A stretch of DNA of 13,064 nt from Rhodothermales bacterium (GTDB lineage: Bacteria > Bacteroidota > Rhodothermia > Rhodothermales > VXPQ01), in NCBI GenBank assembly GCA_040904565.1, contig JBBDTI010000058.1, positions 97,236-110,299 of the forward strand. The letters are read 5' to 3'. Below, piece by piece: positions 3 through 13,064 of this stretch (position 1 is its first letter; the number at the start of each line of letters is the position of its first letter). A program made the translations under genes and the position numbers. Below the pieces are notes generated by a model that ran no database searches, was not told the origin of the DNA, and worked only from the letters and a program-made list of their open reading frames with translations.

Positions 3-878
3 GACGTGGATGGGGACGGTGACCTCGATCTGATCCTCGCGGGAGAATGGATGCCGCTGACCCTGTTCGAAAATCGGGACGGGGAGCTCGTCCGGCGCAG
101 CGATTTTATCACCGCTTCGATGGAAGACCCCGAAACGGTTGTGGAAGGTGCCGGCGGAGACCCTCCTGACGGCACTGAGGGGTGGTGGAACGCCGTCCAC
201 CTGGCGGACCTGGACGGGGACGGCGACGCAGATCTAATCGCGCTGAATCACGGCCTCAATTCCCGCTTTCGCGCTTCGCCCGAAGAGCCCGTCCATATGT
301 GGGTGGATGATTTCGACGGAAATGGATCGACGGAGCAGATCCTGGCCGTCTACCGCGATGGCGGTCCATATCCGATTGCCCTCCGCCACGATCTGATCGA
401 CCAGCTGCCGTTTCTTGAGGCAAAATATCCCACCTATGCATCATACGCCGGCCGGACGGTCTACGACGTCTTCTCGGAGGAGCAGCTTCAGCGGGCCGTG
501 CACCGCCAGGTCGTACAGCTTCAAAGCGTGGTGGGATGGAACGACGGGAGCGGACGGTTTCGCATCGAGCCGCTTCCACTGGAGGCGCAGCTGGCACCGA
601 TGTACGGCATCGAAACCATCGAGACGGAAAGAGGGCCGCTCGTTTTCGCAGGCGGCAATCTATACGAGGCCAAACCGCAGGTCGGACGTTACGACGCCAG
701 CTATGGAGCTGTGTTGCGGGCGGATTCGGCCGGATTGCGGTCGGTTTCTTTCGCGCAGAGTGGGTTCGTGGTGACAGGTCCGATTCGACGGCTTGCCACG
801 ATCGTTTCCGGTGATCGCCGGCTCCTTTTGGTCGGGAGAAACGACGATACCCTGAAGGTATACGCGTATGATGATTGA
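3..878 (+). CDS. FG-GAP/VCBS-repeat (CRTAC1/ASPIC-UnbV-type) protein, C-terminal part; 5'-truncated by the window edge
   Basis: The frame is open from position 3 (DVDGDGDLDL). It has repeated DxDGDG Ca-binding FG-GAP motifs. GEWMP, GWW, LxDQLP and GRYDA motifs are collinear with the C-terminal ~290 aa of the next gene. Confidence 0.9.
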   Translation, partial: DVDGDGDLDLILAGEWMPLTLFENRDGELVRRSDFITASMEDPETVVEGAGGDPPDGTEGWWNAVHLADLDGDGDADLIALNHGLNSRFRASPEEPVHMWVDDFDGNGSTEQILAVYRDGGPYPIALRHDLIDQLPFLEAKYPTYASYAGRTVYDVFSEEQLQRAVHRQVVQLQSVVGWNDGSGRFRIEPLPLEAQLAPMYGIETIETERGPLVFAGGNLYEAKPQVGRYDASYGAVLRADSAGLRSVSFAQSGFVVTGPIRRLATIVSGDRRLLLVGRNDDTLKVYAYDD

Positions 879-3800
879 CGCCTACAGGTCGTGCGAGTCG
901 TCGCAGCGCGGGCCGGTGCCTCCAGGCGCCGTTTCCCCAGGGGGCGTGCTCGCGGCCGCCGTTCTCCTGCTCGCCCTCTCAGCCTGTACCGCGCGCGGGC
1001 CGGAGGACCTTCGCCGCTTTACGCTGCTCGATGCGGGCCATACGAACGTGACGTTCTCGAATCGGGTGGCGGATGAGGAGGCGTTCAACATCCTCGAATA
1101 TCTCTATTTCTACGATGGTGGAGGCGTGGCGGTAGGCGACATAAACAACGACGGCCTACCGGATCTTTATTTCACCGCCAATCTGGGCGTCAATCGGCTC
1201 TACGTCAACCGGGGCGACCTGACGTTTGAGGACGTGACGGAGACTGCCGGCGTGGGCGGCCGCGACGATGCATGGTCCACCGGCGTGACCATGGCCGACG
1301 TCAACGGAGACGGATGGCTGGACATCTACGTGTGTCAGGTAAGCTACAAGTCCGTCCACGGGCGCAACCTGCTCTACGTCAACAATCAGGACGGCACGTT
1401 TACGGAAGCCGCGGAGGCGTACGGACTCGATTTCGAGGGGCTGTCAACACAGGCTGCGTTTTTCGATTACGACCGGGACGGAGATCTGGATCTCTACCTG
1501 CTCAATCACGCCGTACATGGCAGGGAATCGTTCGTGGAGGCGTGGCGGCGCATCATCGACGCCCCGCGCGTGGGCGACAGGTTGTATCGAAATGACGGTG
1601 GGCGCTTCACGAACGTGACGAGCGAAGCCGGCATCTACAGCAGCGCGCTCGGCTATGGCCTTGGCGTGGCCATCAGCGACGTGAATCGAGACGGCTGGCC
1701 GGACATCTACGTCGGCAACGATTTTCATGAGAACGATTATCTCTACCTCAACAACGGAGACGGTACCTTCTCGGAAGACCTCCGGCGCGCGATCGGCCAC
1801 ACGAGCCGCTCGTCCATGGGTAATGACGCGGCCGACATTAACAACGATGGGCTCATCGACATCGTCTCCCTCGATATGCTGCCGGAAGATCTGGCGACGT
1901 ATCGCCGCTCGGGCGGGCCGGATCCGAAAGACCTCGTGCGCATCAAGACGAGCTACGGCTACGCACCGCAGTATGCCCGCAACACCCTGCAGCTCCACCG
2001 CGGGCTCGGCCCGGACGGGCTTCCGCGCTTCAGCGAAATCGGACGCTTCGCGGGCATCCACGCGACGGACTGGAGCTGGTCGGCGCTGCTGGCGGACCTG
2101 GACAACGACGGGTGGAAAGATCTCTACGTGACGAACGGCATCCTCCGGCGTCCCAATGACCTGGATTACGTCGCGCATGTCTCTCGTCCCGATGTGCAGG
2201 ACGTTCTGAGGGAAGGTGCGTTCGAGGATCAGCTCGAAGTCATCCGGCGGATGCCCTCGGTCCCGATCCCCAACTACGCATACCGCAACAACGCCGATCT
2301 GACATTTACGGACCGGGCGTCCGACTGGGGACTCGCCGACGCTGGATTTTCTAACGGGGCGGCGTATGGGGATCTGGACGGCGACGGAGATCTGGAACTC
2401 GTCGTCAATAATATCAATGGACCTGCCTCCATCTACCGCAACAACACGGACTCGCTCGACGCGTCCCGATACCTGAGCGTGAAGTTGGAGGGGGACGGGA
2501 TGAATACGACCGGTAATGGGGCGTCCGTCTCGATCTACGCCGGCGAGATGCACTTTTTTCAGGAGCAGTACCCGACGCGCGGATTCCAGTCGTCCGTATC
2601 CCACGTCCTGCATTTCGGACTGGGCGCGGCCGAGATGGTGGATTCCCTGCTCGTCGTCTGGCCCGACGGACGCTACCAGCGGCTCGACTCGGTCGACACC
2701 GGGCGTCGCCTCGCGCTGCGGCAGAGCGATGCGACGGGAAGCTATGCTTTCGACGACGGTGCGTACGAATCCCCGTTGTTTGCCGACGTAACCGACCTGC
2801 TGGGCGTCGATTTCGTTCACCGGGAGAATGAGTATCTGGATTTCGAGGCGCAGCCGCTGATGCCTCACCGGCTGTCTACGCAGGGGCCCGCTCTGGCCGT
2901 CGGCGATGCGAACGGAAACGGACTCGACGACCTCTACGTGGGTGGCGCGCGTGGACAGTCCGCGAGGCTCTACCTCCAGCAGGTCGATGGCACGTTGCAG
3001 GCCACGGCTTCTCCGTTTGACCGCGATAGGGCGCACGAGGATGTGGATGCTGCTTTCGTCGACGTGGACGGCGACGGTGATCTCGATCTGTACGTCGTCA
3101 GCGGAGGTGGGGAGCATGCACCCGGACACGAGCTGCTCCAGGACCGACTCTACCTGAACGACGGCCGGGGTACCTTCGCACGGGCGGAGGGGGCGCTGCC
3201 GGAGGTACGGGCGGACGGCTGCTGCGTGGCAGCGGGAGACTTCGATGAAGACGGTGACGTGGATCTCTTCGTCGGAAGTCGATCGGTTCCCGGTTCGTAC
3301 GGCAGGTCGCCGCAGAGCTATCTCCTCGAGAATGACGGGACAGGCCGATTCCACGACGTGACCGCGGAGCGTGCGCCGAGCCTGCACCGCGCGGGCATGA
3401 TAACCGATGCCGTGTGGGCGGATATGGATGGAAGCGGGCGCAAAGATCTCGTACTGGTAGGCGAATGGATGCCTGTGACCGTGCTTCGAAACACCCTGCT
3501 TCAGGATGAAGGAGCGCGGCTTGTCGACGCTACGAACGAGTTCGGACTCGCCGAATCGACGGGGTGGTGGAGAAGTGTCGCGGCCGCAGATCTCAATGGA
3601 GACGGGAGGATGGATCTGGTCGCCGGCAATCTGGGCACCAACACGGTACTTCGCGCCTCGAAGGAGCAGCCGCTAACGTTGTACGTGGATGACGTCGACG
3701 GGAACGGTACGTCCGATCCCATCATCGTCGAGTACAGAGAGGGGAGGCCTTATATGTGGGCGCGGAGGGACGAGCTGCTCGATCAGCTTCCCGATTTCCA

Positions 3801-4275
3801 GAAGAAGATACCAACGTATTCATCCTATTCGGATGCCGCGCTGGAAGATCTCGTCGATCCGGAGTTGCTGCGAGAAGCCGGGCAAGAGTACGTGCGGACG
3901 TTCCGATCGTCCGTCTTTCAACAACGAGAAGGTGAGGGCTTCGTCCGGCGTGACCTTCCAGACGTCGTGCAGTGGTCGCCCGTGATGGATGTGCTGGTTC
4001 TCGACATCGACGGTGATGGAGAGATGGATCTGATGACGGCGGACAACTTCTTCGGGGCAGACGATAAGCAGGGACGCTACGATGCCGGGTACGGGACGGT
4101 GCTGCTCGGAGACGGGCGGGGCGGATATGAGGCGGTTTCCCTCGGTCGCAGCGGCTTCCTCGTGGAAGGCGAGGCACGAAAACTGGCCTTGCTGCAGGGT
4201 CCGGAGGGGGGACGAGCGGTCGCTGTCGCCCGTAATGACGCCCCGTTACAGGTCTATCGGTTGTTGCTGGATTAA
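868..4275 (+). CDS. FG-GAP/VCBS-repeat lipoprotein with central ASPIC/UnbV domain (CRTAC1-like), ~1135 aa
   Basis: Many DxN/DxDGxxDL repeats. Central 'RGFQSSVSHVLHFGLG...VVWPDG' is a typical ASPIC/UnbV signature. A hydrophobic stretch ends in the lipobox LALSA-C40. The ATGATG start (868/871) overlaps the end of the upstream gene (stop at 876-878). Confidence 0.9.
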   Translation: MMIDAYRSCESSQRGPVPPGAVSPGGVLAAAVLLLALSACTARGPEDLRRFTLLDAGHTNVTFSNRVADEEAFNILEYLYFYDGGGVAVGDINNDGLPDLYFTANLGVNRLYVNRGDLTFEDVTETAGVGGRDDAWSTGVTMADVNGDGWLDIYVCQVSYKSVHGRNLLYVNNQDGTFTEAAEAYGLDFEGLSTQAAFFDYDRDGDLDLYLLNHAVHGRESFVEAWRRIIDAPRVGDRLYRNDGGRFTNVTSEAGIYSSALGYGLGVAISDVNRDGWPDIYVGNDFHENDYLYLNNGDGTFSEDLRRAIGHTSRSSMGNDAADINNDGLIDIVSLDMLPEDLATYRRSGGPDPKDLVRIKTSYGYAPQYARNTLQLHRGLGPDGLPRFSEIGRFAGIHATDWSWSALLADLDNDGWKDLYVTNGILRRPNDLDYVAHVSRPDVQDVLREGAFEDQLEVIRRMPSVPIPNYAYRNNADLTFTDRASDWGLADAGFSNGAAYGDLDGDGDLELVVNNINGPASIYRNNTDSLDASRYLSVKLEGDGMNTTGNGASVSIYAGEMHFFQEQYPTRGFQSSVSHVLHFGLGAAEMVDSLLVVWPDGRYQRLDSVDTGRRLALRQSDATGSYAFDDGAYESPLFADVTDLLGVDFVHRENEYLDFEAQPLMPHRLSTQGPALAVGDANGNGLDDLYVGGARGQSARLYLQQVDGTLQATASPFDRDRAHEDVDAAFVDVDGDGDLDLYVVSGGGEHAPGHELLQDRLYLNDGRGTFARAEGALPEVRADGCCVAAGDFDEDGDVDLFVGSRSVPGSYGRSPQSYLLENDGTGRFHDVTAERAPSLHRAGMITDAVWADMDGSGRKDLVLVGEWMPVTVLRNTLLQDEGARLVDATNEFGLAESTGWWRSVAAADLNGDGRMDLVAGNLGTNTVLRASKEQPLTLYVDDVDGNGTSDPIIVEYREGRPYMWARRDELLDQLPDFQKKIPTYSSYSDAALEDLVDPELLREAGQEYVRTFRSSVFQQREGEGFVRRDLPDVVQWSPVMDVLVLDIDGDGEMDLMTADNFFGADDKQGRYDAGYGTVLLGDGRGGYEAVSLGRSGFLVEGEARKLALLQGPEGGRAVAVARNDAPLQVYRLLLD

Positions 4276-4363: not shown

Positions 4364-4419
4364 GTCGCTACGCCATCGTCGCTACGTCATCGCCTCAACG
4401 CCATCGTCGCAATAGCTTC
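4364..4419. repeat. Four degenerate 14-bp tandem units spanning the GT4 stop codon
   Basis: gtcgctacgccatc / gtcgctacgtcatc / gcctcaacgccatc / gtcgcaatagcttc at 4364, 4378, 4392 and 4406. Confidence 0.6.
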
Positions 4420-5697
4420 GTCATAGTAGTTCGATATATTCTGTAGGGTTTGCGACCAGTCATACGACGCTGCGGCCGCACGAGCACGTCGGCCCATGGT
4501 CTCTCGGAGCGCGCGGTCGCGCACCAGACGCCGTGTGCGATCGTAGAACGCATCCGCATCACGCGGCGGAGCCACGAGCCCCGTCCTCCCGTCGGCGACG
4601 TGCGAGCCGGCGCCGGTCCCCGCGGCGCAGACGACTGGGAGTCCGGATGCCATGGCCTCTACGATCACGTTGCCGAAGGCTTCGCTGTCGCTAGGGAAGA
4701 GGAATATGTCGGATGAGGCATAAGCGGTGGACAGGGCGTCGCCGTCGAGGTGCCCGGTAAAGATCGTTTCGGTAAGGCGTTTCCGGAGCGATTCGCGAAG
4801 CGGCCCATCGCCGACGATGAGACTCCGGACGTTCGAACCATCGCGGTGCAGCCGCTCTATGACGGACGCCGCAACGTCGAGCCCCTTTTCCCGGACGAGC
4901 CGCCCTACGTAGCTCACGACCACGTCGTCCGGCGCGAATCCGTGCCGAGACCGCCATGCGGCAGAACGGCAGGACGGATGGAAGCGCTCGCAGTCGACAC
5001 CGCGACTCCACAGGCGGATCGGTTCGACGATGCCGTGGCGGTTCAGATCGGAAGCCGTCTCCGTCGTGGGAACGTAAAGATGAACGCACCGGCCGTAGAA
5101 CCACTTCAGGTACGCATAAAGCGGACGTTCCATCCAGGCGAAATGGTAGTAACGAAGGTACGTGGGGAAGTGCGTATGGTACGTGGCCACAAGCGGAACG
5201 CCCCGGGCATTCGCCCACGTCATCGCAGCGATCCCGAGTAGATCCGGCGTGGCCACGTGGACGAGGTCGGGGGCAAATCGATCCAGGCGCCGCCGTGCTC
5301 GCCTCGGAAGGCCGAGAGAGAACCGATACTCGGGTCGACCAGGTACCGGAAGAGAGGGCAGCGCTGTAAAGGCGCGGTCCCTTCCGGCAGGCAGAGGCCC
5401 ATCGGGAGCAAACACGTGAAGCTGGTCTCCGCGAGACTCCAGAAAGGTTACCAGGCGTCCCAGCGTGCGGGAGACGCCGTCGGTTACCGTAACGAAATTA
5501 CCGGTAAATAGAGCGATGCGTCGGCCGGACGACGGCGAACGCAGTGGCTGCATCGACACGGGGCCACTGTCGGCCGTACGTATCTTCCGGGACGATGGCG
5601 CGCGTAAAAGGGTCTCCGGTTGCTCGACGGCCGAATCCAGGTTCAAACCGGACAAGGCCGGCGAGGGACGTCCCTCGCCATGTGTTCTGAATGTCAT
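4387..5697 (-). CDS. Glycosyltransferase family 4 (GT-B fold; PimB/MgtA- or SqdX-like subgroup)
   Basis: N-domain 'IALFT...DGVSRTL', 'TYHTHFPTYLRYY' and 'WSRGVD..RFHP'. C-domain 'VGRLVREKG' and the EX7E motif 'EAFGNVIVE'. ATG 5697 has AGGAGG 5 nt upstream; an alternative ATG at 5553 lies nearer the recognisable domain. Substrate cannot be assigned. Confidence 0.9.
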   Translation of the reverse strand: MTFRTHGEGRPSPALSGLNLDSAVEQPETLLRAPSSRKIRTADSGPVSMQPLRSPSSGRRIALFTGNFVTVTDGVSRTLGRLVTFLESRGDQLHVFAPDGPLPAGRDRAFTALPSLPVPGRPEYRFSLGLPRRARRRLDRFAPDLVHVATPDLLGIAAMTWANARGVPLVATYHTHFPTYLRYYHFAWMERPLYAYLKWFYGRCVHLYVPTTETASDLNRHGIVEPIRLWSRGVDCERFHPSCRSAAWRSRHGFAPDDVVVSYVGRLVREKGLDVAASVIERLHRDGSNVRSLIVGDGPLRESLRKRLTETIFTGHLDGDALSTAYASSDIFLFPSDSEAFGNVIVEAMASGLPVVCAAGTGAGSHVADGRTGLVAPPRDADAFYDRTRRLVRDRALRETMGRRARAAAASYDWSQTLQNISNYYDEAIATMALRR

Positions 5698-5700
5698 ACT

Positions 5701-5772
5701 TCCCTCCTGTAGGAATGATGGAATGTGCTCTGGGGCCGCAGGCGCGGACTTTCAGCACATTCTCAGGAGAGA
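5701..5772 (-). promoter_or_regulatory. Predicted nested stem-loop sequestering the GT4 Shine-Dalgarno
   Basis: On the minus-strand RNA, UCUCUCCUG (5772-5764) pairs with CAGGAGGGA (5709-5701), giving 8 Watson-Crick pairs plus 1 G-U. It encloses a perfect 9-bp inverted repeat, gaatgtgct (5721-5729) / agcacattc (5754-5762). Confidence 0.5.
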
Positions 5773-6125
5773 TACACGCAGAGGACCGAAAGGGGATGGG
5801 AAAAGGGGAGGCGATCCGAATCCGACCCCAAAGCGGTGATCGGTCGGCGGCTTGGCGCCGGTACCGACAGCGGCATGTGGAGATGCTCGATGGCCAGAAG
5901 CACGTCGGTACGGCGGTCTCCCACAATCACTGGTTGGAGTACCGGCGCATCGGGAAATAGATCGTCGCGCTCCTCCGCCGGCGGATCGACGCACATTTCG
6001 TAAAACGATGCGGGAGCGTCCGTCCCCGTTGTGCCGGTGCATACGGCCCGCTCAACGCCACCTTCCGGCAAGAGCAATACGCTCGCCAGGAGCATTAGGG
6101 CGATATGCAGTCCTCGTCGCATCAT
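5763..6125 (-). CDS. Hypothetical 120-aa protein with N-terminal signal/TM segment; candidate regulatory leader ORF
   Basis: MRRG plus a hydrophobic core (LHIALMLLASVLLLP), a Pro/acidic linker and a hydrophobic C-terminus (PLSVLCVYLS). It fills the gap between the GT4 gene and the divergent AT-richer spacer. RBS is weak. Confidence 0.55.
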   Translation of the reverse strand: MMRRGLHIALMLLASVLLLPEGGVERAVCTGTTGTDAPASFYEMCVDPPAEERDDLFPDAPVLQPVIVGDRRTDVLLAIEHLHMPLSVPAPSRRPITALGSDSDRLPFSHPLSVLCVYLS

Positions 6126-6178
6126 ATACTAAATACTCTCATTTCCGCCCTTGCGTTTCGTGTTACCTGCGTGCCGTC

Positions 6179-6207
6179 TTGTGCCCACGTCGTTCGCTTT
6201 GTATTGT
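6179..6207 (+). promoter_or_regulatory. Possible sigma70-type promoter for the DyP module
   Basis: TTGTGC (6179-6184), a 17-nt spacer and TATTGT (6202-6207), in a locally AT-richer divergent intergenic region. A second -10-like TACAAT lies at 6217-6222. Confidence 0.25.
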
Positions 6208-6254
6208 TACGTCATGTACAATGGAACGCGGCTAGCGCGAGGTTGGATCGGAAC

Positions 6255-7625
6255 ATGGCGAAGGCAGGCTACCAGAACGGGTTGACGATCGTCACGCCCA
6301 TCTCGGAGGGGAGAATGGATGCCCTCCGGGATACGCTGCAAGTGATCGAGGATGACGTAGAGGAGAACGACCTCGTTCCGCTCTCGAGCTGCGAACGCAT
6401 TCACTTCGCCCGCTGGATCATTTTGGAAGCGTCGACGGACGCCACGGGCCGTCCGACGCCGGCTGTGCTCATTTTCTCGACCAACTTCGACGCACCGCTA
6501 GCGGCGCATCTCGACGAGCTGTACGAGCACGGCGCGTCGGGTCTCGACCGGATTTACAGCTGCTGTGACGGCTATCCGGGGCCGCATGAGCGTACGAAAA
6601 CGCGCGTACTTCAGTATCTGCGCGATCGCGAGGCCGGGTACAACACGCTCTACGTCGGCACGCGTGGATTGACCGTGCCGCGGATCCGGCGCGAGGCGGA
6701 GCTGCGCGACGCGATTGAAGGTTTTCTCGACGATCGGATCACGCAGCCGGATTTTCTGGAGCAGCAACCGGGTGCTATTCGCGAGGCGATCCGCGCGTTT
6801 GTGCAGGGACGGGACGATCTACGCTGGGCGATGGAAGCACCCCCCGAGCCGCGTCGTTTCTGGCCGACGTCGAAGGATGCCTGGATAGCGATCGCGGTGC
6901 TTGTCGTGGTGGGCGCGCCCATCGGTTTCGGTATCGCGACGTCGCCGTCGACCGGATGGGCCACGTTCGGTGCACTCCTGGGGGTGGTCGCGGTCGTACT
7001 TGCAGCAGGGGCTGCCGTGCTGCGCTACAAGGAGAAAAGGGACCGCCAGGATCCGGCAACGACGAACTTCGAACACGTCGCCAGCTTGCTGGAGCGTGAA
7101 GACGTCCGCTCTGAAGGCCGCCCCATCGTCCAAAACCAGATGAGCAGCGTCACGAATATCAAAATCGGCTGGTTTCGGCGTACGCTCCTCCGCGGGGTCC
7201 TGGCGGCGATCGATGTGGCTGGGCGCTATATTTATACAAAAGGAAAACTCGGCTCCATTCCGTCGATCCATTTTGCCCGATGGGTCGTCATCGATGGCGG
7301 CCGCCGGCTCCTCTTCTTCAGTAATTTCGACGGAAGCTGGGAAAATTACCTCGGTGATTTCATCGATAAGGCCGCCAGCGGGTTGACGGCCGTGTGGAGC
7401 AATACGGACGGCTTTCCGCGCTCGCGCTGGCTGGTGGGAGACGGCGCTACGGACGAGCAGCGCTTCAAGGCCTATGCACGCAACAGCCAGACGATCACCG
7501 AAGTGTGGTACAGCGCCTACAAATATCTATCGGTTCAGAATATCAACAATAACGCGCAGCTCCGTGCCGGGCTCGTCGGTTCGCAGACGGAGGAAGACAC
7601 GGCGGCGTGGCTGCGGCGATTCTAG
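6255..7625 (+). CDS. Uncharacterised DyP-associated membrane protein with two homologous IHFARW domains flanking a 2-TM hairpin (~456 aa)
   Basis: Internal duplication: QNGLT..IHFARW..LIFSTNFD..GLDRIYS..GYP versus QNQMS..IHFARW..LLFFSNFD..GLTAVWS..GFP. Two hydrophobic helices at ~6879-7022. ATG 6255 (GGA upstream) is preferred over 6105 because domain 1 starts right after it and 6105 overlaps the divergent ORF. Confidence 0.85.
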   Translation: MAKAGYQNGLTIVTPISEGRMDALRDTLQVIEDDVEENDLVPLSSCERIHFARWIILEASTDATGRPTPAVLIFSTNFDAPLAAHLDELYEHGASGLDRIYSCCDGYPGPHERTKTRVLQYLRDREAGYNTLYVGTRGLTVPRIRREAELRDAIEGFLDDRITQPDFLEQQPGAIREAIRAFVQGRDDLRWAMEAPPEPRRFWPTSKDAWIAIAVLVVVGAPIGFGIATSPSTGWATFGALLGVVAVVLAAGAAVLRYKEKRDRQDPATTNFEHVASLLEREDVRSEGRPIVQNQMSSVTNIKIGWFRRTLLRGVLAAIDVAGRYIYTKGKLGSIPSIHFARWVVIDGGRRLLFFSNFDGSWENYLGDFIDKAASGLTAVWSNTDGFPRSRWLVGDGATDEQRFKAYARNSQTITEVWYSAYKYLSVQNINNNAQLRAGLVGSQTEEDTAAWLRRF

Positions 7626-7736
7626 CGGGTGCGGTCGTGCGGCACCTCTTCGTCGCCGATATCGTCTGCGATGCCGATCCCTGCCGAAAGGCTAATTGCC
7701 GGCAGCAACGTGAAGCCGGTAGCAATATGAACACGA

Positions 7737-9176
7737 ATGGATGCAATGCAACCCATGGCGCAACTCGAACACGACGACATTCAGGGTTTTATCGTACGCG
7801 GCTACGGCAGGCTGCCTGAGGCGTCCTATCTTCTGCTGCACGTCTCGGATACTGCCGGCGCTCGGGAGTGGCTCGGTGAGATGGTCGAGCTCGTCACGCC
7901 GAGTACGACCAAACCGCCTGATGCCGCGTATCACGTCGCCTTTACCTGCGAGGGGCTGCGTGCTCTGGGCGTGCACGAAGACGATCTGAATACGTTTTCT
8001 CTACCCTTTTTCGAGGGGATGGCGGCGCCTCGGCGCACGCGTATTCTCGGTGACATGCACGAGAGCGCTCCTTCGGAATGGCGATGGGGCGGTCCGGACA
8101 CCGACGCCGTCCACGTACTCGTTCTCCTGTTCGGCCGCGACGAGGAGGCGCTCGAGACGGCCTGTGCGAAAGTACGGAATGCCTACCGGGGCGTCACGGA
8201 GCTGGCCCGCCTCGATACGTATAGTTTCGAACCGATACGGGAGCACTTCAGTTTTCGCGACGGCATTGCCCAGCCGATTATCGAGGGACTCAGTCGCACC
8301 GGTCCACCCGAGAACACGCTGCCTCCCGGTGAATTCATTCTCGGCTACGAAAACGCGTACGACAAGCTGCCCGCGAGTCCGACCGTAGCCCCCGAGCGCG
8401 ATCCGGACGTACTTCTCCCGCGCGTCGACGCAGTGACCGATGGAGGGAATGCGTCCGTCGTGGGCGATTTCGGCCGCAACGGCTCCTACCTCGTTTTTCG
8501 GCAGATGAGTCAGGACGTCAAGGGGTTCTGGGACTTCATCAGTAGCATTGCGGAAGACATGTACGGCAGCAGTGACTCGATGACGCGCACGCGGATTGCG
8601 GCCAAGATGGTCGGGCGCTGGCCCAGCGGCGCCCCGCTGGTCATGTGCCCTCATGCCGATGACGAGGAGCATGCGGACAAGGACAACTTCGGCTACGCGG
8701 ACGATCCGCACGGCACGATGTGTCCGGTCGGCTCTCACATCCGACGAACGAATCCCCGTGACGCCCTCGAAGGGTCGGCCGAGGAATCCATCACCGTCTC
8801 CAACCGGCACCGCCTGCTGCGCCGCGGCCGGGCATACGGCGCGCCGATCTCCGACACGATCGATGTGGACGAGATTCTTGGGGCCGAGGAGGAGCATGAA
8901 GAATGCGGGCTGCATTTCATCTGCCTCAATGCTGATCTGAGCCGGCAGTTCGAGTTCGTGCAGCAGACCTGGGTCAACAATGCCAAGTTCGGTGGACTCT
9001 ACACCGATGCCGATCCGCTGTTGGGGAATCACGACGCCTCGGATACCACCTTTACGATGCAGCGTGAACCCGTACGAGAGCGCATTACGGGCATGAAGCG
9101 CTTTGTGGAGGTACGCGGCGGGGCCTACTTCTTCCTGCCTGGCTTACGCGCCCTTCGATATCTCGCCACGTTGTAA
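7737..9176 (+). CDS. DyP-type (dye-decolorizing) heme peroxidase, long cytoplasmic type
   Basis: 'DIQG' N-terminus, EHFSFRDGIAQP (distal Asp motif), NGSYLVFRQMSQDV, KMVGRWPSG, CPVGSHIRRTNPR (proximal His), LLRRGRAYG (distal Arg), GLHFICL..QFEFVQ..W and GGAYFFLPG. The start could be 7737, 7746 or 7755. Confidence 0.93.
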   Translation: MDAMQPMAQLEHDDIQGFIVRGYGRLPEASYLLLHVSDTAGAREWLGEMVELVTPSTTKPPDAAYHVAFTCEGLRALGVHEDDLNTFSLPFFEGMAAPRRTRILGDMHESAPSEWRWGGPDTDAVHVLVLLFGRDEEALETACAKVRNAYRGVTELARLDTYSFEPIREHFSFRDGIAQPIIEGLSRTGPPENTLPPGEFILGYENAYDKLPASPTVAPERDPDVLLPRVDAVTDGGNASVVGDFGRNGSYLVFRQMSQDVKGFWDFISSIAEDMYGSSDSMTRTRIAAKMVGRWPSGAPLVMCPHADDEEHADKDNFGYADDPHGTMCPVGSHIRRTNPRDALEGSAEESITVSNRHRLLRRGRAYGAPISDTIDVDEILGAEEEHEECGLHFICLNADLSRQFEFVQQTWVNNAKFGGLYTDADPLLGNHDASDTTFTMQREPVRERITGMKRFVEVRGGAYFFLPGLRALRYLATL

Positions 9177-9197
9177 ACACACTCTTTCGGACGGACC

Positions 9198-9812
9198 ATG
9201 AAGCTTCGCCAACTCGACCTGCGGACGGACATCCTGCCGTTCGTCATCGCGACGGCCGGCGAATTCGCCGCGCTCTTCTTCTGGCTCAAGTACCTGGACG
9301 AAGGACGTTTCATCTTCGCCAACCTCGTGCTCTGGGCCGGCTTCGCCGTGGAGCGTGCGGCCGTCTATCTCTGGATCCGGTTCATCTACCGGAAGAAGGA
9401 GGGACGCACGGAATCCCAGCCGCTTCTCGTTACACTGGCGGGTCTGTTTTTCATCACCCTGTCAGAGATCCTGATCTGGATTCTCTGGCTCTCCATCGCC
9501 GGCGGCGACATCTCCTGGCTGGCGTCGAGTTTTACGGTGAACTTCACCCTGGCGGGCGTGATCTTAATGGGATTGATGCTCGTCGAGCACAGCGTCGAGA
9601 TGGCGGCGCTGCGACGTACGAAGCCGCTGGCGTACATTCGCAGCCCGAACACCATTCTCTTTACGTTCATGGAAGTGGCTGGGGCCATGGGCTGGCTCTA
9701 TTTTGTTCGCGCGGATCGCCCCGTCCTGGGGGCCGTTTGCCTGCTTGTGGGACTCTCGATCGAGCACGTCCTGCAAGGCAGCGAACTCCGTCCGGATGAG
9801 GTGCCGCTATAG
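9198..9812 (+). CDS. Uncharacterised 6-TM membrane protein with three internal helical-hairpin repeats
   Basis: 204 aa with six hydrophobic segments. TxxE-x6-WL and L-x5-[VI]E[RH] each occur three times. It starts 21 nt after the DyP stop, with a GGA-containing RBS-like sequence. Confidence 0.85.
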   Translation: MKLRQLDLRTDILPFVIATAGEFAALFFWLKYLDEGRFIFANLVLWAGFAVERAAVYLWIRFIYRKKEGRTESQPLLVTLAGLFFITLSEILIWILWLSIAGGDISWLASSFTVNFTLAGVILMGLMLVEHSVEMAALRRTKPLAYIRSPNTILFTFMEVAGAMGWLYFVRADRPVLGAVCLLVGLSIEHVLQGSELRPDEVPL

Positions 9813-9898
9813 GGAACGGCGCACTGCATCGTTACCGGCGCCTTCATTCCGACTCGAGGAACGGAGGATCACGAGCGAGGAGGAATGATGCGGAACGG

Positions 9899-10513
9899 TC
9901 AGTCGAGCGCAAACACGATCCCGAATTTTACGGGGATGAACTGCGTCGGATCGTCATCCGTAAAAATTACGTCATAGTTGATCTCAGCGAACAGGTTCAA
10001 TCCGTCCGCGACCGGAAATTGAGAGCCCACACCCACCAACAGTCCCGGCTTCGTCTCGGAATCCGTTTCGAATGGTGTGGTGATACCTCCTCCGGTGACC
10101 GTGCCTTCGCTGAAGCTGACGCGACGGATACCCCCCTGGGCGTGCACGTACGGAATGTTGGGTGATTCGATGCTGAACTGGTATCGCAGTCCGACAGAGG
10201 CGGAGAGAATGGACATGCCGCCGCCCTTGACCTGGACGTTCAGTCCACCGAGCCCGAGATCGTCCAGCAGGCGGCCCGCGTCAAGCGGCGTCATAGTAAA
10301 AGATACGTCCGCCTCCAATCCGTATTCGGAGGCAAGAACGCGTATACCGGAGAAGCCAACCATGAACCCCGTCGGATAATAGTCCGCCGCCTCTTCGGGC
10401 GCGATCGACCTGTTGAGCCCTCCGTAGGCCTGCAGGAGCGAAGAAGTCGTTTGGGCTCGCAGGGGGATGACGAGGAACGATACCGCGAGGACGGTCAGGA
10501 TGAGCGTTTTCAT
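9899..10513 (-). CDS. Outer-membrane beta-barrel protein (OmpA-TM/OMP_b-brl-like), ~204 aa
   Basis: Signal peptide MKTLILTVLAVSFLVIPLRA-Q from ATG 10513. Amphipathic strands include ASVGLRYQF, PYVHAQGG, GLLVGVGSQF and LFAEINY, with a terminal strand KFGIVFALD. The 89 codons upstream in the ORF track look non-coding. Confidence 0.85.
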   Translation of the reverse strand: MKTLILTVLAVSFLVIPLRAQTTSSLLQAYGGLNRSIAPEEAADYYPTGFMVGFSGIRVLASEYGLEADVSFTMTPLDAGRLLDDLGLGGLNVQVKGGGMSILSASVGLRYQFSIESPNIPYVHAQGGIRRVSFSEGTVTGGGITTPFETDSETKPGLLVGVGSQFPVADGLNLFAEINYDVIFTDDDPTQFIPVKFGIVFALD

Positions 10514-10670
10514 GGTGAGCGTGTTTCGCAAAGGGCGGTCCGGGTGATGGGGAGCGGGCCCTGCAAGGCGGCCCCCGGTCGTATACTCCAGAGGGGCGCG
10601 GCGGTTACAAGCCGGGTGAGACCCCGACATCCGTGTTTGCTCCAGATACCTGGAAAGGCGATATTTGCGC

Positions 10671-10802
10671 ATGGCGATTCCTGCACGAATCCGACCTTTT
10701 GCGGTACTGGCCGTGGCCGTACTCGTTATTTTCAACGGCAGTGCTCCGGTGTCGCCACCCATTGCGACCGATCCGTCCAAACGTTCCCGTCGATTCTACT
10801 GA
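10671..10802 (+). CDS. Possible 43-aa single-TM/signal-like small protein
   Basis: Manual translation: MAIPARIRPFAVLAVAVLVIFNGSAPVSPPIATDPSKRSRRFY*. The stop TGA overlaps the GAGG RBS of the next gene. RBS is weak (GGAAAGG at 10652-10658). Confidence 0.3.
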   Translation: MAIPARIRPFAVLAVAVLVIFNGSAPVSPPIATDPSKRSRRFY

Positions 10803-10810
10803 GGCCGATC

Positions 10811-12178
10811 ATGCACCGGACGATCATCACGTTTCTTCTGCTCATTCTGCTAGCGTCGGGATGCACCACGCCAGGCGATGATGACTCCGTACCGGATCGC
10901 CACGTCGTCGTTATCAGCATCGACGGATTTCCTGCCGAGGCGCTGTGGGACGAGCGGATTCCGCTGCCTACGCTCCGGGCTCTGGCAAACGACGGGGCCT
11001 GGGCGCGCGCGCTGAGTCCATCGACGCCTTCGGTCACGTGGCCCAACCACACGACGCTGGCGACGGGCGTGCATCCCGAGCGACACGGCGTCTTGATGAA
11101 CGGACGCTTCGTGCGATCCGGTCCGGGCGAGCCGGTGAGGAAGCAGAACGATCTCGATCGAGCGGAGATGACAGCGTACCCCAGCCTCTACGATGCGGCC
11201 TACGAGGCGGGGCTCGTGACGGCGGAGGTCAACTGGCCCGTCACACGCGGTGCGGAGACGCTGCATGCGAGCTTTCCGGATGCGCCAGGAGCCGTGGATC
11301 ATATGACGGAGAGCCTGCGGACAGAGCTGGTGGAACTCGGGATTCTTGCGGACGAGTCGGGCGAGTTGTTCGGGCGGATGAGCTACGCCGGTCGCGATCA
11401 CGTGTGGACCTCCGCGGCAGCGCACGTGATCCGCTCGCGTCGACCGAACGTGTTGCTCTTTCACCTCCTGAGTGTGGATGGGACGCATCACGCCTACGGT
11501 GCCGGATCGCAGCCCGCCTTTACGGCGCTCGCTTTCGCCGACGCGCAGGTCAGGTACGTGCTCGACGCGCTGGAAGAAGCCGGCATTCGGGACCGTGCGA
11601 CGATTTTCGTCGTGTCGGACCACGGCTTTATGAATGTGAGCCGGCGGATCTATCCCAACGTGTTGCTCCAGGAAGAAGGATTGCTCGAGGTGGATGCGGA
11701 CGGACAGCCGGTCTCCGCGCGCGTCCACGCGCTCTCGAACGGCGGCTCCGCGATGGTCTTCGCGACGGATCCCGCTACGAAGGACGAGGATCTCGATCGT
11801 GCCCGGCAGCTGTTCGAAGGGGCCGAGGGCATCGCGCGCGTGCTAACGCCCGACGAGTTCGAGGCCTTCGGACTGCCGGATCCCTCGGACAGCGACCAGG
11901 TGGGCGACCTCGTCCTCGGTGCGGCCCAGGGGTATTCCTTCAGTGAGGCCGCCACCGGAGACTACGTCCGCGAGCTCGACGGCCCGAGCGGCGTGCACGG
12001 TTATTTCAGCGATGTCGAGGAGATGGAGGCTCTCTTCATCGCCTCAGGAAGCGGCATCCGTTCGGGTATCGAGCTCGACATCGTCGACAACCGCTCCATC
12101 GCCGCTACGGCCGCCCGGCTTCTCGGCGTCCCGCTCGAGACGGCGGACGGACAGGTGCTGGAGGAAATTCTCGAGTAG
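10811..12178 (+). CDS. Ectonucleotide pyrophosphatase/phosphodiesterase (NPP, alkaline phosphatase superfamily) lipoprotein, ~455 aa
   Basis: ATG 10811 with GAGG upstream and lipobox LASG-C. Motifs: ISIDG, PSVTWPNHTTLATG (Thr nucleophile), DGTHH, SDHG and GVHGY. Confidence 0.92.
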   Translation: MHRTIITFLLLILLASGCTTPGDDDSVPDRHVVVISIDGFPAEALWDERIPLPTLRALANDGAWARALSPSTPSVTWPNHTTLATGVHPERHGVLMNGRFVRSGPGEPVRKQNDLDRAEMTAYPSLYDAAYEAGLVTAEVNWPVTRGAETLHASFPDAPGAVDHMTESLRTELVELGILADESGELFGRMSYAGRDHVWTSAAAHVIRSRRPNVLLFHLLSVDGTHHAYGAGSQPAFTALAFADAQVRYVLDALEEAGIRDRATIFVVSDHGFMNVSRRIYPNVLLQEEGLLEVDADGQPVSARVHALSNGGSAMVFATDPATKDEDLDRARQLFEGAEGIARVLTPDEFEAFGLPDPSDSDQVGDLVLGAAQGYSFSEAATGDYVRELDGPSGVHGYFSDVEEMEALFIASGSGIRSGIELDIVDNRSIAATAARLLGVPLETADGQVLEEILE

Positions 12179-13001: not shown

Positions 13002-13010
13002 TATACAAAG

Positions 13011-13064
13011 TGGAGATGGCGGGAATCGAACCCGCGTCCGAATGGACGCACTCACAAACCTCTA
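13011..13064 (-). ncRNA. ssrA: tmRNA 3' end (partial, runs off the window)
   Basis: The reverse complement reads TAGA...TTCGGAC-GCGGG-TTCGATT-CCCGC-CATCTCC-A. This gives a GAC before the T-arm, a T-arm, and an alanine-type acceptor 3' strand (U70 for G3-U70, discriminator A). No anticodon arm precedes it. Confidence 0.88.

Follow-up and report, generated by a model that had tools for sequence, protein, structure and literature searches.

In the introduction of PMC9719856, the roles listed for DyP-type heme peroxidases are iron uptake, encapsulin cargo, and copper trafficking, and the DyPs of class V are reported to oxidize dyes, anthraquinones, and phenols. The same paper describes a subclass, V4, in which an N-terminal P450 and "some transmembrane regions" are followed by a C-terminal DyP; this subclass is called unexplored, its sidedness is given as uncertain, and H2O2 scavenging or joint compound synthesis is suggested for the P450-DyP fusions. 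Here, we analyzed a stretch of 13,064 nucleotides (nt; hereafter the window) from a Rhodothermales bacterium (GCA_040904565.1, contig JBBDTI010000058.1, positions 97,236–110,299 of the forward strand), in which a block mapped at window positions 6255–9812 encodes, on the + strand and in the order g1-DyP-g3, a class V DyP and two membrane proteins, g1 and g3. The majority of bacterial DyPs in class V are regarded as orphan oxidizers of dyes or lignin and, to our knowledge, physiological roles of DyPs are known in few contexts only. We found that the unit consists of a two-gene core, g1-DyP, plus accessories and is not an obligate three-gene module, and that the system is an uncharacterized context for a known enzyme family, carrying a new membrane domain.

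The DyP of this locus belongs to the same sequence family as the solved class V DyPs (8re2/8re3, annotated as "putative peroxidase"; DyP2, 4g2c; AnaPX/Alr1585, 5c2i) and is like them in its length of about 480 amino acids, FxDG distal Asp, proximal His, and distal Arg; these proteins were studied as standalone proteins, whereas the DyPs of the present clade always lie beside, or are fused to, g1. The best solved relative was 8re3 (E value 3.8e-63), followed by fungal DyPs, DyP2, and AnaPX (E 1e-37 to 6e-26); together with matches to Pfam Dyp_perox_C (22.3 bits, cut-off 20) and to TIGR01413 (E 1.8e-27; 96.5 bits, slightly below the cut-off of 100.5 bits), this places the protein in the DyP family by sequence. 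The FxDG motif (F173-R-D175-G176) is of the GXXDG type, the role of which, with its distal Asp, is described in the introduction of PMC9719856. Two further motifs, GSHIRRTNPRD (residues 332–342), which aligns with the same motif of 8re3, and RRGRAYG (362–368), contain the proximal His (H334) and two Arg (R363 and R365), either of which may be the distal one; F173, D175, G176, H334, R363, and R365 are all invariant in 15 module DyPs. Because the motifs are present and D175, H334, R363, and R365 are invariant across these 15 DyPs, the enzyme looks catalytically competent. When read by eye, its N terminus showed no Tat, twin-Arg, or Sec-like hydrophobic segment, as was also noted in the initial annotation, which described a DyP without export signal.

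The locus fits neither the EfeUOB nor the encapsulin context of DyPs. EfeUOB likewise encodes a DyP with a polytopic membrane protein bearing conserved membrane carboxylates; however, the module DyP lacks a Tat signal, is predicted to be cytoplasmic rather than exported, and scored 29.9 bits against TIGR01412 (cut-off 428 bits), and no EfeU (FTR1), EfeO, or encapsulin family was found among the 12 window proteins scanned (E ≤ 0.01). An encapsulin-cargo context was also rejected, with no shell gene family present in the window or in 46 flanking open reading frames (ORFs) of related loci, so that the initial dismissal of both contexts stands. Subclass V4 shows the same association of P450, membrane segment, and class V DyP as the loci with an adjacent P450 (27/80), a P450-g1 fusion protein (P0321), and a cluster of ~915-amino-acid proteins described below; the available part of the V4 account in PMC9719856 does not identify the tandem ABM domains around the membrane segment, g3, or the unfused operon, which is by far the commoner form. 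The initial annotation had recognized no characterized system of this composition. That view holds in so far as our full-text literature search turned up no experiments on g1, on g3, or on this clade of DyPs (the sole mention found being in the available text of PMC9719856), and it does not hold for the fusion of P450, transmembrane segment, and DyP, which is already in print (PMC9719856).

When a single genome from each species was scanned with the g1 alignment, 80 loci were kept. A DyP orthologue (tblastn, 35–65% identity) is encoded directly downstream of g1 in 79 of them, an adjacency too frequent for chance; the exception, L034, ends inside g1. These loci represent at least eight phyla (Acidobacteriota, Gemmatimonadota, Bacteroidota, Planctomycetota, Actinomycetota, Rhodothermota, Pseudomonadota, and a delta-proteobacterial/Polyangiaceae group), the Pseudomonadota locus coming from a Roseobacter metagenome-assembled genome and the Polyangiaceae/delta-proteobacterial loci also from metagenome-assembled genomes. 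The median spacing between g1 and DyP is a few tens of nt, and 17 of the 79 pairs, all from Gemmatimonadota, form a single in-frame ORF; in L007, the continuous frame was read through and places DyP at the C terminus of g1. Fusions are also found among database proteins, 164 of which, at 799 amino acids or longer, contain g1. Pfam scans of 16 of these long proteins identified DyP in 10 (three of which also matched catalase), catalase (PF00199) in five, P450 in one (P0321, P450 + g1), and nothing in one. Four proteins of ~1300–1400 amino acids (P0326, P0336, P0344, and P0351) have a partial catalase match at the C terminus, and three of the four also match DyP; in P0322, a catalase-like domain precedes g1. 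Because fusion occurs in several architectures, it provides strong evidence that g1 and DyP work together physically, and the two proteins may dock on each other in the unfused forms. In one locus (L029:7237–8571), g1 and DyP are separated by a 1.3 kb gap with opposite-strand ORFs, which may be an insertion.

A total of 1110 g1 homologues were found at E ≤ 1e-3 among 8000 candidates scored, and these were unnamed or "hypothetical" throughout among the matches listed. No copy of g1 was found when 300 other genomes (144 genera) of the phylum to which the window belongs were sampled. A quick maximum-likelihood tree built from 69 g1 sequences places the window copy in a clade of five rows with good support (SH-aLRT 99), the members of which span Lewinellaceae, Vicinamibacterales, Gemmatimonas, and Salinibacter; the module is patchily distributed and has probably moved horizontally. 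For this DyP clade, the linkage provides an obligate partner and a likely location at the inner membrane face, in a g1 family that comprises over 1,100 clusters and is represented in at least eight phyla.

The N- and C-terminal halves of g1 are homologous to each other (BLASTP, 30% identity over 161 residues, E 4e-17), each carrying an IHFARW and an S-N-F-D-G/A motif, and lie on either side of two hydrophobic segments (residues 211–229 and 238–256; helices 206–229 and 231–262 in the model). Four residues, H50, H85, C104, and H339, are invariant in 22 sequences, with H50 and H339 representing the His of IHFARW in the respective half; the protein is thus a two-helix membrane protein with duplicated His-containing domains, as initially described. 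The motifs of the C-terminal half are IPSIHFARW and SNFDGSWENYLGDFIDKA. Sequence searches did not link g1 to a curated ABM-type family, as Pfam gave nothing above the curated cut-off (the sole match being sub-threshold DUF7544, 16.6 bits, cut-off 27), NCBIfam gave no match, and no PDB sequence match was better than E 0.5. An AlphaFold2 model built on the 22-sequence alignment (pLDDT 85, pTM 0.83) matched WhiE-ORFI (9lmn_B; Z 15.2, root-mean-square deviation 4.1, 226 residues aligned), the polyketide decarboxylase Abx(+)O (9ltx_A; Z 11.8), and two "putative monooxygenases" (3mcs_B, Z 10.2; 3f44_A, Z 10.0), followed by numerous single ABM domains (Z 6–8); the TcmI cyclase (Z 7.4) and YgiN with menadione (1tuv; Z 6.5) were also matched. 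The single ABM domains include those of the heme-degrading enzymes MhuD (4nl5; Z 6.7) and IsdG (1xbw; Z 5.9), in which catalysis involves an Asn/Trp/His set and which were matched at the level of the fold only. Foldseek also matched the model to 9lmn_A (E 1.3e-4). Because tandem-ABM proteins top the fold matches of the model and Foldseek concurs, g1 is predicted to be a membrane-anchored pseudo-dimeric ABM barrel, the beta-alpha-beta-beta-alpha-beta arrangement of which is present in the predicted model; the ABM fold typically holds hydrophobic or polycyclic ligands. An early guess, based on the HFxRW motif, that g1 is a degenerate DyP was dropped, since no DyP was among the fold matches listed and the tandem ABM proteins matched far better.

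Like the tandem ABM or SchA-like proteins (9lmn, 9ltx, 3mcs, and 3f44; 197–226 residues aligned), g1 would form its barrel from two ferredoxin-like halves, but identity is merely 6–10% in the four alignments, g1 has no ABM Pfam match, and g1 differs in having a transmembrane hairpin between the halves, an obligate heme-peroxidase partner, and no polyketide genes nearby. The stretches on both sides of the hairpin are rich in Arg and Lys, which, under the positive-inside rule, suggests that both soluble halves of g1 are cytoplasmic. Look-ups in the ESM Atlas returned only the g1 family itself and its fusions; one Atlas cluster of ~915-amino-acid proteins, 90% of whose members contain a P450, structurally matches the C-terminal half of g1.

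The model of g3, built on a 105-sequence alignment, is a six-helix bundle (pLDDT 92.4), and the sequence reads as three hairpin repeats. Nine residues (E22, E52, R53, E90, H131, E134, E159, E189, and H190) are invariant in the 105 sequences, which matches the six membrane helices, six Glu, and two His of the initial description; the window copy has a seventh membrane Glu, E130, which is non-invariant. While 114 near-length homologues were found, g3 had no Pfam or NCBIfam match, its best hit in the VIA structure search (Z 6.8, with none at Z ≥ 8) was within the noise for helical bundles, and Foldseek returned nothing at E ≤ 1e-3, results that speak neither for nor against a novel fold; queries of the ESM Atlas gave no further information.

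Besides the window, g3 lies beside g1-DyP in nine (L005, L010, L045, L051, L055, L058, L069, L070, and L075) of the 64 g1 loci that have at least 700 nt of flanking sequence on both sides. g3 is absent from the other 55 and is therefore not needed for the core function; it is an accessory outside the core. Conservation across genomes thus applies to the g1-DyP pair (79/80 loci) and not to g3 (9/64), and the proposed functional linkage is supported for g1 and DyP by both their adjacency and their in-frame fusions (17/79). The g3-bearing loci fall in two separate parts of the quick g1 tree, and one of them (L055) has the order g1-DyP-P450-g3. Searching from g3 yielded another 24 metagenome loci, eight with g1-DyP, eight in which g3 adjoins a RoxA-like di-heme cytochrome c peroxidase or is fused to it, and eight too short to assign. 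The eight g1-DyP loci have the order g1-DyP-g3 or g3-g1-DyP, although the contig of L091 fits DyP only; the RoxA-like group includes one fusion (L096) and two loci (L098 and L105) with a patatin-like phospholipase alongside.

A g3 profile search over 1.84 billion representatives gave 242 relatives at E ≤ 1e-3, and 19 multidomain or outlying ones were scanned for other domains. Ten contain an An_peroxidase (animal heme peroxidase) domain on either side of g3, one is a DyP-g3 fusion (P0379), one has an EamA match, and seven gave nothing. The sole An_peroxidase domain tested, from P0446, matched PGHS-2 (prostaglandin H synthase 2; E 9e-50) far better than lactoperoxidase (E 1e-14) and is therefore cyclooxygenase-like. 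By these domain matches, the g3 domain accompanies members of three unrelated heme peroxidase/oxygenase superfamilies, DyP, cyclooxygenase-like, and RoxA-like di-heme. One end or the other of g3 is directly continuous with a signal-less DyP domain in P0379 and with cyclooxygenase-like domains in P0419, P0445, P0446, and P0494, in the latter four without an additional predicted helix. The RoxA-like, c-type-heme domain of L096 is preceded by an inserted seventh helix; these domain orders are consistent with cytoplasmic termini of g3. A shorter branch of the family, which includes P0400, P0409, and many proteins of 160–190 amino acids, matches the profile in two stretches (~80–185) and is apparently a four-helix version of the hairpin repeat. 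The window genome contains a single copy of g3; no An_peroxidase match was found in this genome by a search whose control likewise matched nowhere.

The variable partners of g1-DyP include a co-oriented P450, which adjoins the pair in 27 of the 80 loci (18 upstream and nine downstream; two further loci have a P450 on the opposite strand); a GST domain accompanies the P450 in 16 of the 27, fused to it in 15 and split in L054. The window itself has no P450 adjoining the module. The best solved relatives of these P450s are ordinary bacterial P450s (E ~1e-14 to 1e-17). The initial annotation had named P450, catalase-like, and peroxidase-cyclooxygenase genes as possible extra partners, and each was found, as adjacent P450s, as a catalase-related domain in five of the 16 long g1 fusions, and as the peroxidase domains on 10 of the 19 g3 relatives. 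In 46 further co-oriented flanking ORFs, Pfam scans identified no recurrent family other than P450/GST and g3, and no polyketide synthase, other core biosynthetic, aromatic-catabolic, or encapsulin family. Some local neighbors were also observed. A 480–590-amino-acid protein forming a cluster across eight loci lies directly upstream of the fused Gemmatimonadota g1-DyP (L018:3655–5415, L009, L017, L019, L027, and L060); it has no Pfam, NCBIfam, or PDB match. Just downstream of g1-DyP in L020 (9040–9456), L022, and L026 (Sporocytophaga-like), a LytTR DNA-binding protein is encoded, which may be a local regulator. In L043 (3887–4594), L056, and L057 (Pyrinomonadaceae, Blastocatellia), the P450-g1-DyP row is preceded by genes for an alpha/beta hydrolase (Abhydrolase_11, E 1e-59) and for a ~390-amino-acid unnamed protein. 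In the Planctomycetota locus L073 (3912–6101), the alignment of the GST-P450 encoded upstream of g1 breaks off ahead of the Cys loop, which may reflect a frameshift or an assembly error.

The joint explanation that we consider best, and to which we would give an even chance, is that g1 and DyP are one cytoplasm-facing, membrane-tethered system oxidizing a lipophilic substrate, with g3 as an adaptor and with a lipid as the favored substrate. g1 would be a pseudo-dimeric ABM barrel held on the inner face of the membrane by its transmembrane hairpin, and the signal-less class V DyP, covalently fused in some lineages, would dock on it. The substrate would reside in or partition into the membrane; g1 may bind, present, or pre-oxygenate it, DyP would supply peroxide-driven heme chemistry, and g3 may link heme peroxidases/oxygenases to a bilayer-resident substrate. 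That the system faces the cytoplasm, as initially proposed, agrees with the charge distribution at the membrane helices and with the domain order of the fusions, from which the topology is deduced. The substrate class is the weak step; by analogy, an unsaturated lipid or lipid hydroperoxide is favored, in oxylipin-type chemistry or in the repair of peroxidized lipids.

Lipid chemistry is favored because the other partners of g3 are cyclooxygenase-like proteins and di-heme peroxidases, some of them in loci with patatin; cyclooxygenases are fatty-acid oxygenases, and patatins are a phospholipase family. The oleate diol synthases PA2077 and PA2078 are members of the di-heme cytochrome c peroxidase family (PMC5155153). 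Lipid chemistry is also favored because a peroxidase with a second heme enzyme recalls the fungal diol synthases, an analogy also made in PMC9719856, where P450-DyP fusions are compared with psi-factor oxygenases. As in the fungal linoleate diol synthases/Ppo (peroxidase-cyclooxygenase + P450; PMC4420034), a heme peroxidase/dioxygenase is paired here with a second heme enzyme (P450 or catalase-related), but the first enzyme of the module is a DyP and the module-linked P450s keep the monooxygenase I-helix motif, so that the analogy is functional only. Dual oxidase (PMC4420034), with its peroxidase domain and membrane NADPH-oxidase domain, resembles the cyclooxygenase-like-g3 and DyP-g3 fusions in carrying a peroxidase domain on a polytopic membrane domain. 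It differs in that g3 showed no detected ferric-reductase/NOX family and has only two conserved His and no flavin/NADPH domain. We know of no fatty-acid oxygenase activity in DyPs and of few enzymes for membrane-lipid oxidation in bacteria; the g3 family, which ties three unrelated heme enzyme superfamilies to one membrane domain, provides a concrete lead into such oxidation. A broader and rather doubtful reading is that g3 represents a new integral-membrane domain and is a common adaptor for DyP, cyclooxygenase-like, and RoxA-like enzymes, with its Glu/His cluster extracting or activating a membrane lipid, and that g1-DyP is a hitherto unrecognized, horizontally mobile, lipid-oxidizing (oxylipin-type) bacterial enzyme; if this were true, DyP would do the job performed elsewhere by cyclooxygenases, lipoxygenases, or di-heme diol synthases.

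A number of observations weigh against a lipid-oxidizing g1-DyP system with g3 as adaptor. Besides the absence of g3 from 55 of the 64 adequately flanked loci, the pointers to lipids come mostly from distant g3 relatives (≤38% identity, except L090) and not from g1-DyP loci, and RoxA-like, patatin, and cyclooxygenase-like genes are missing within 6 kb in all 80 g1 loci. Aromatic polyketides rather than lipids are the substrates of the nearest structural relatives of g1, and a combination of GST, P450, and ABM fold would suit aromatic or quinone chemistry equally well. The DyP-linked P450s look like ordinary O2-activating monooxygenases, because they retain the Cys loop and the I-helix acid-alcohol pair (G-A-V-D/E-T-T; [DE]-T-T is kept in 24 of the 27, with L044, L055, and L076 varying at one position); P450s of the CYP74 type, which rearrange hydroperoxides, lack the I-helix Thr, and a reading of the partner P450s as CYP74-like hydroperoxide isomerases was rejected on the retained pair. 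The cyclooxygenase-like fusion P0406 has an N-terminal hydrophobic segment that, if it is a signal peptide, would place the N terminus of its g3 outside. The C terminus of P0344 matched 3e4w, a small catalase-related hemoprotein, only weakly (E 0.009).

Some of these observations would also fit detoxification or tailoring of lipophilic aromatics that partition into the membrane (quinones, phenolics, or anthraquinone-like compounds), with P450 hydroxylation followed by DyP oxidation, oxygenation or decarboxylation of the ABM type, and conjugation by GST. The aromatic polyketide substrates of the top structural matches of g1 (WhiE-ORFI, Abx(+)O, and TcmI), the dyes, anthraquinones, and phenols oxidized by class V DyPs (PMC9719856), the P450 in 27 of the 80 loci (16 of the 27 with a GST domain), and the resemblance of these P450s to ordinary monooxygenases all fit such a pathway; we nevertheless regard it as unlikely, given that the 46 flanking ORFs contain no polyketide synthase, core biosynthetic, or aromatic-catabolic genes, that the pairing of g3 with cyclooxygenase-like and RoxA-like/patatin genes is left unexplained, and that it gives no reason for a membrane tether. 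Another reading is that H2O2 or organic peroxides are scavenged by DyP at the inner membrane face, with electrons from the quinol pool relayed via g1 and/or a metal center of g3, as a functional analogue of the membrane-bound quinol peroxidases. All recurrent partners (DyP, P450, catalase-related, cyclooxygenase-like, and di-heme cytochrome c peroxidase) are peroxide-reactive heme proteins; menadione-bound YgiN is among the fold matches of g1, and ABM folds include quinol monooxygenases; the six invariant Glu and two His of g3 resemble a di-metal carboxylate ligand set; and H2O2 scavenging was, as described above, also suggested for P450-DyP fusions (PMC9719856). Even so, a redox cofactor in g1 or g3 is putative only, with no solved relative of g3 found by VIA or Foldseek, the c-type-heme domain of L096 would lie across the membrane from the g3 termini, which is awkward for a short electron relay, a GST-P450 would be superfluous for a plain scavenger, and the absence of the module from all 300 other genomes of the phylum is unlike a core stress defense; this reading is improbable to about the same degree as aromatic tailoring.

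Heme or iron traffic would make g1 an IsdG/MhuD-like heme-binding or heme-degrading protein that exchanges heme or iron with DyP and, by analogy with EfeU, g3 a Glu-lined metal permease. MhuD and IsdG are on the g1 match list, the ABM fold includes heme-degrading enzymes, each g1 half has one invariant His on the equivalent strand, g3 has a buried carboxylate cluster, and EfeB is itself a DyP (PMC9719856). However, tandem-ABM and polyketide proteins stand far above the heme oxygenases among the fold matches, and neither an FTR1/EfeU nor an EfeO family was detected among the window proteins; the low TIGR01412 score, the exported state of EfeB as opposed to a system that appears cytoplasmic throughout, and the lack of a role for the P450, GST, and catalase-related partners likewise make this reading very improbable. 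Finally, g1-DyP may be the whole system and g3 a downstream gene without shared function. The many loci that lack g3 are compatible with such a bystander, yet g3 recurs with g1-DyP at two distinct places in the g1 tree and in both orders (g1-DyP-g3 and g3-g1-DyP), is fused to DyP in P0379, follows DyP in the window after 21 nt without a terminator-like site, and has its only copy in the genome here, so that we attach next to no weight to this possibility. Together with the obligate partner and the likely membrane location, the recurrent co-factors (P450-GST, the catalase-related domain, and g3) make the natural substrate of this DyP clade a testable question, and the module is carried by cultivable organisms, Segetibacter aerophilus, Pseudarcicella hirudinis, and Agaribacillus aureus (strain BMA12), the last of which also has g3.

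The features of the module and its immediate flanks are listed in Table 1. The ORF map and the homologue alignment confirmed the initial observation of three co-oriented genes with gaps of 111 nt (7626–7736, g1/DyP) and 21 nt (9177–9197, DyP/g3) between a divergent and a convergent neighbor. As mapped, the + strand ORFs span 6105–7625, 7737–9176, and 9198–9812; aligning g1 with 21 homologues placed its start at the Met of 6255. Because Met codons occur at residues 1, 4, and 7 of DyP, the actual start of this gene may be as much as 18 nt downstream.

Table 1. Position of the g1-DyP-g3 module, its domains, and its flanking features in the window.
Feature	Window position	Strand	Basis
g1, 456-amino-acid membrane-anchored protein with two homologous, predicted ABM-type alpha+beta barrel halves; obligate DyP partner	6255–7625	+	ORF and homologue alignment
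g1 N-terminal ABM-like half, residues 1–202, with invariant H50, H85, and C104	6255–6860	+	Alignment, model, and fold search
g1 transmembrane hairpin, residues ~206–262, Arg/Lys-rich on both flanks	6870–7040	+	Hydrophobicity and model
g1 C-terminal ABM-like half, residues 285–456, most conserved part	7107–7622	+	Invariant columns and fold
Class C/D (class V) DyP-type heme peroxidase, 479 amino acids, without export signal	7737–9176	+	PDB/NCBIfam matches and motifs
g3, 204-amino-acid six-helix integral membrane protein with three hairpin repeats and a buried invariant Glu/His cluster; accessory	9198–9812	+	Model and alignment
Non-coding stretch (557 nt) between the divergent glycosyltransferase gene and g1; presumed module promoter region	5698–6254	.	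ORF map
GT4 glycosyltransferase gene, divergent from the module	4387–5697	−	ORF map, Pfam
OMP (outer-membrane) beta-barrel gene, convergent with the module	9899–10780	−	ORF map, Pfam

A promoter scan of positions 5600–10100 gave a single sigma-70-like match, on the minus strand (8306–8277), and none in 5698–6254; no terminator-like site was found in either intergenic gap. Rfam, at gathering thresholds, identified no RNA family in the module, the sole match in the window being the 3′ end of a tmRNA gene (13008–13064, − strand; RF00023, 47.9 bits), which is cut by the window edge.

On another contig of the window genome, a co-oriented row (L084:6077–11617) encodes a di-heme cytochrome c peroxidase, a P450, and a patatin-like protein and is preceded by an NTF2-like gene and a kinase/cyclase gene. 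The di-heme protein matched NF040606 (E 3e-150) and has a RoxA-like domain, and the P450 is the closest relative in this genome of the DyP-linked P450s (32–41% identity). The row looks like a second oxidation module, and parts that are clustered in other genomes are thus split between two loci in this one.

Elsewhere in the window, two FG-GAP repeat proteins are encoded at 3–4275 (+ strand), the second of which has 1135 amino acids with 11 FG-GAP_3 stretches and an ASPIC/UnbV domain. An ORF of the type I phosphodiesterase/nucleotide pyrophosphatase family lies at 10451–12178 (+ strand); its start as listed overlaps the convergent OMP gene, and its actual start is therefore probably later.

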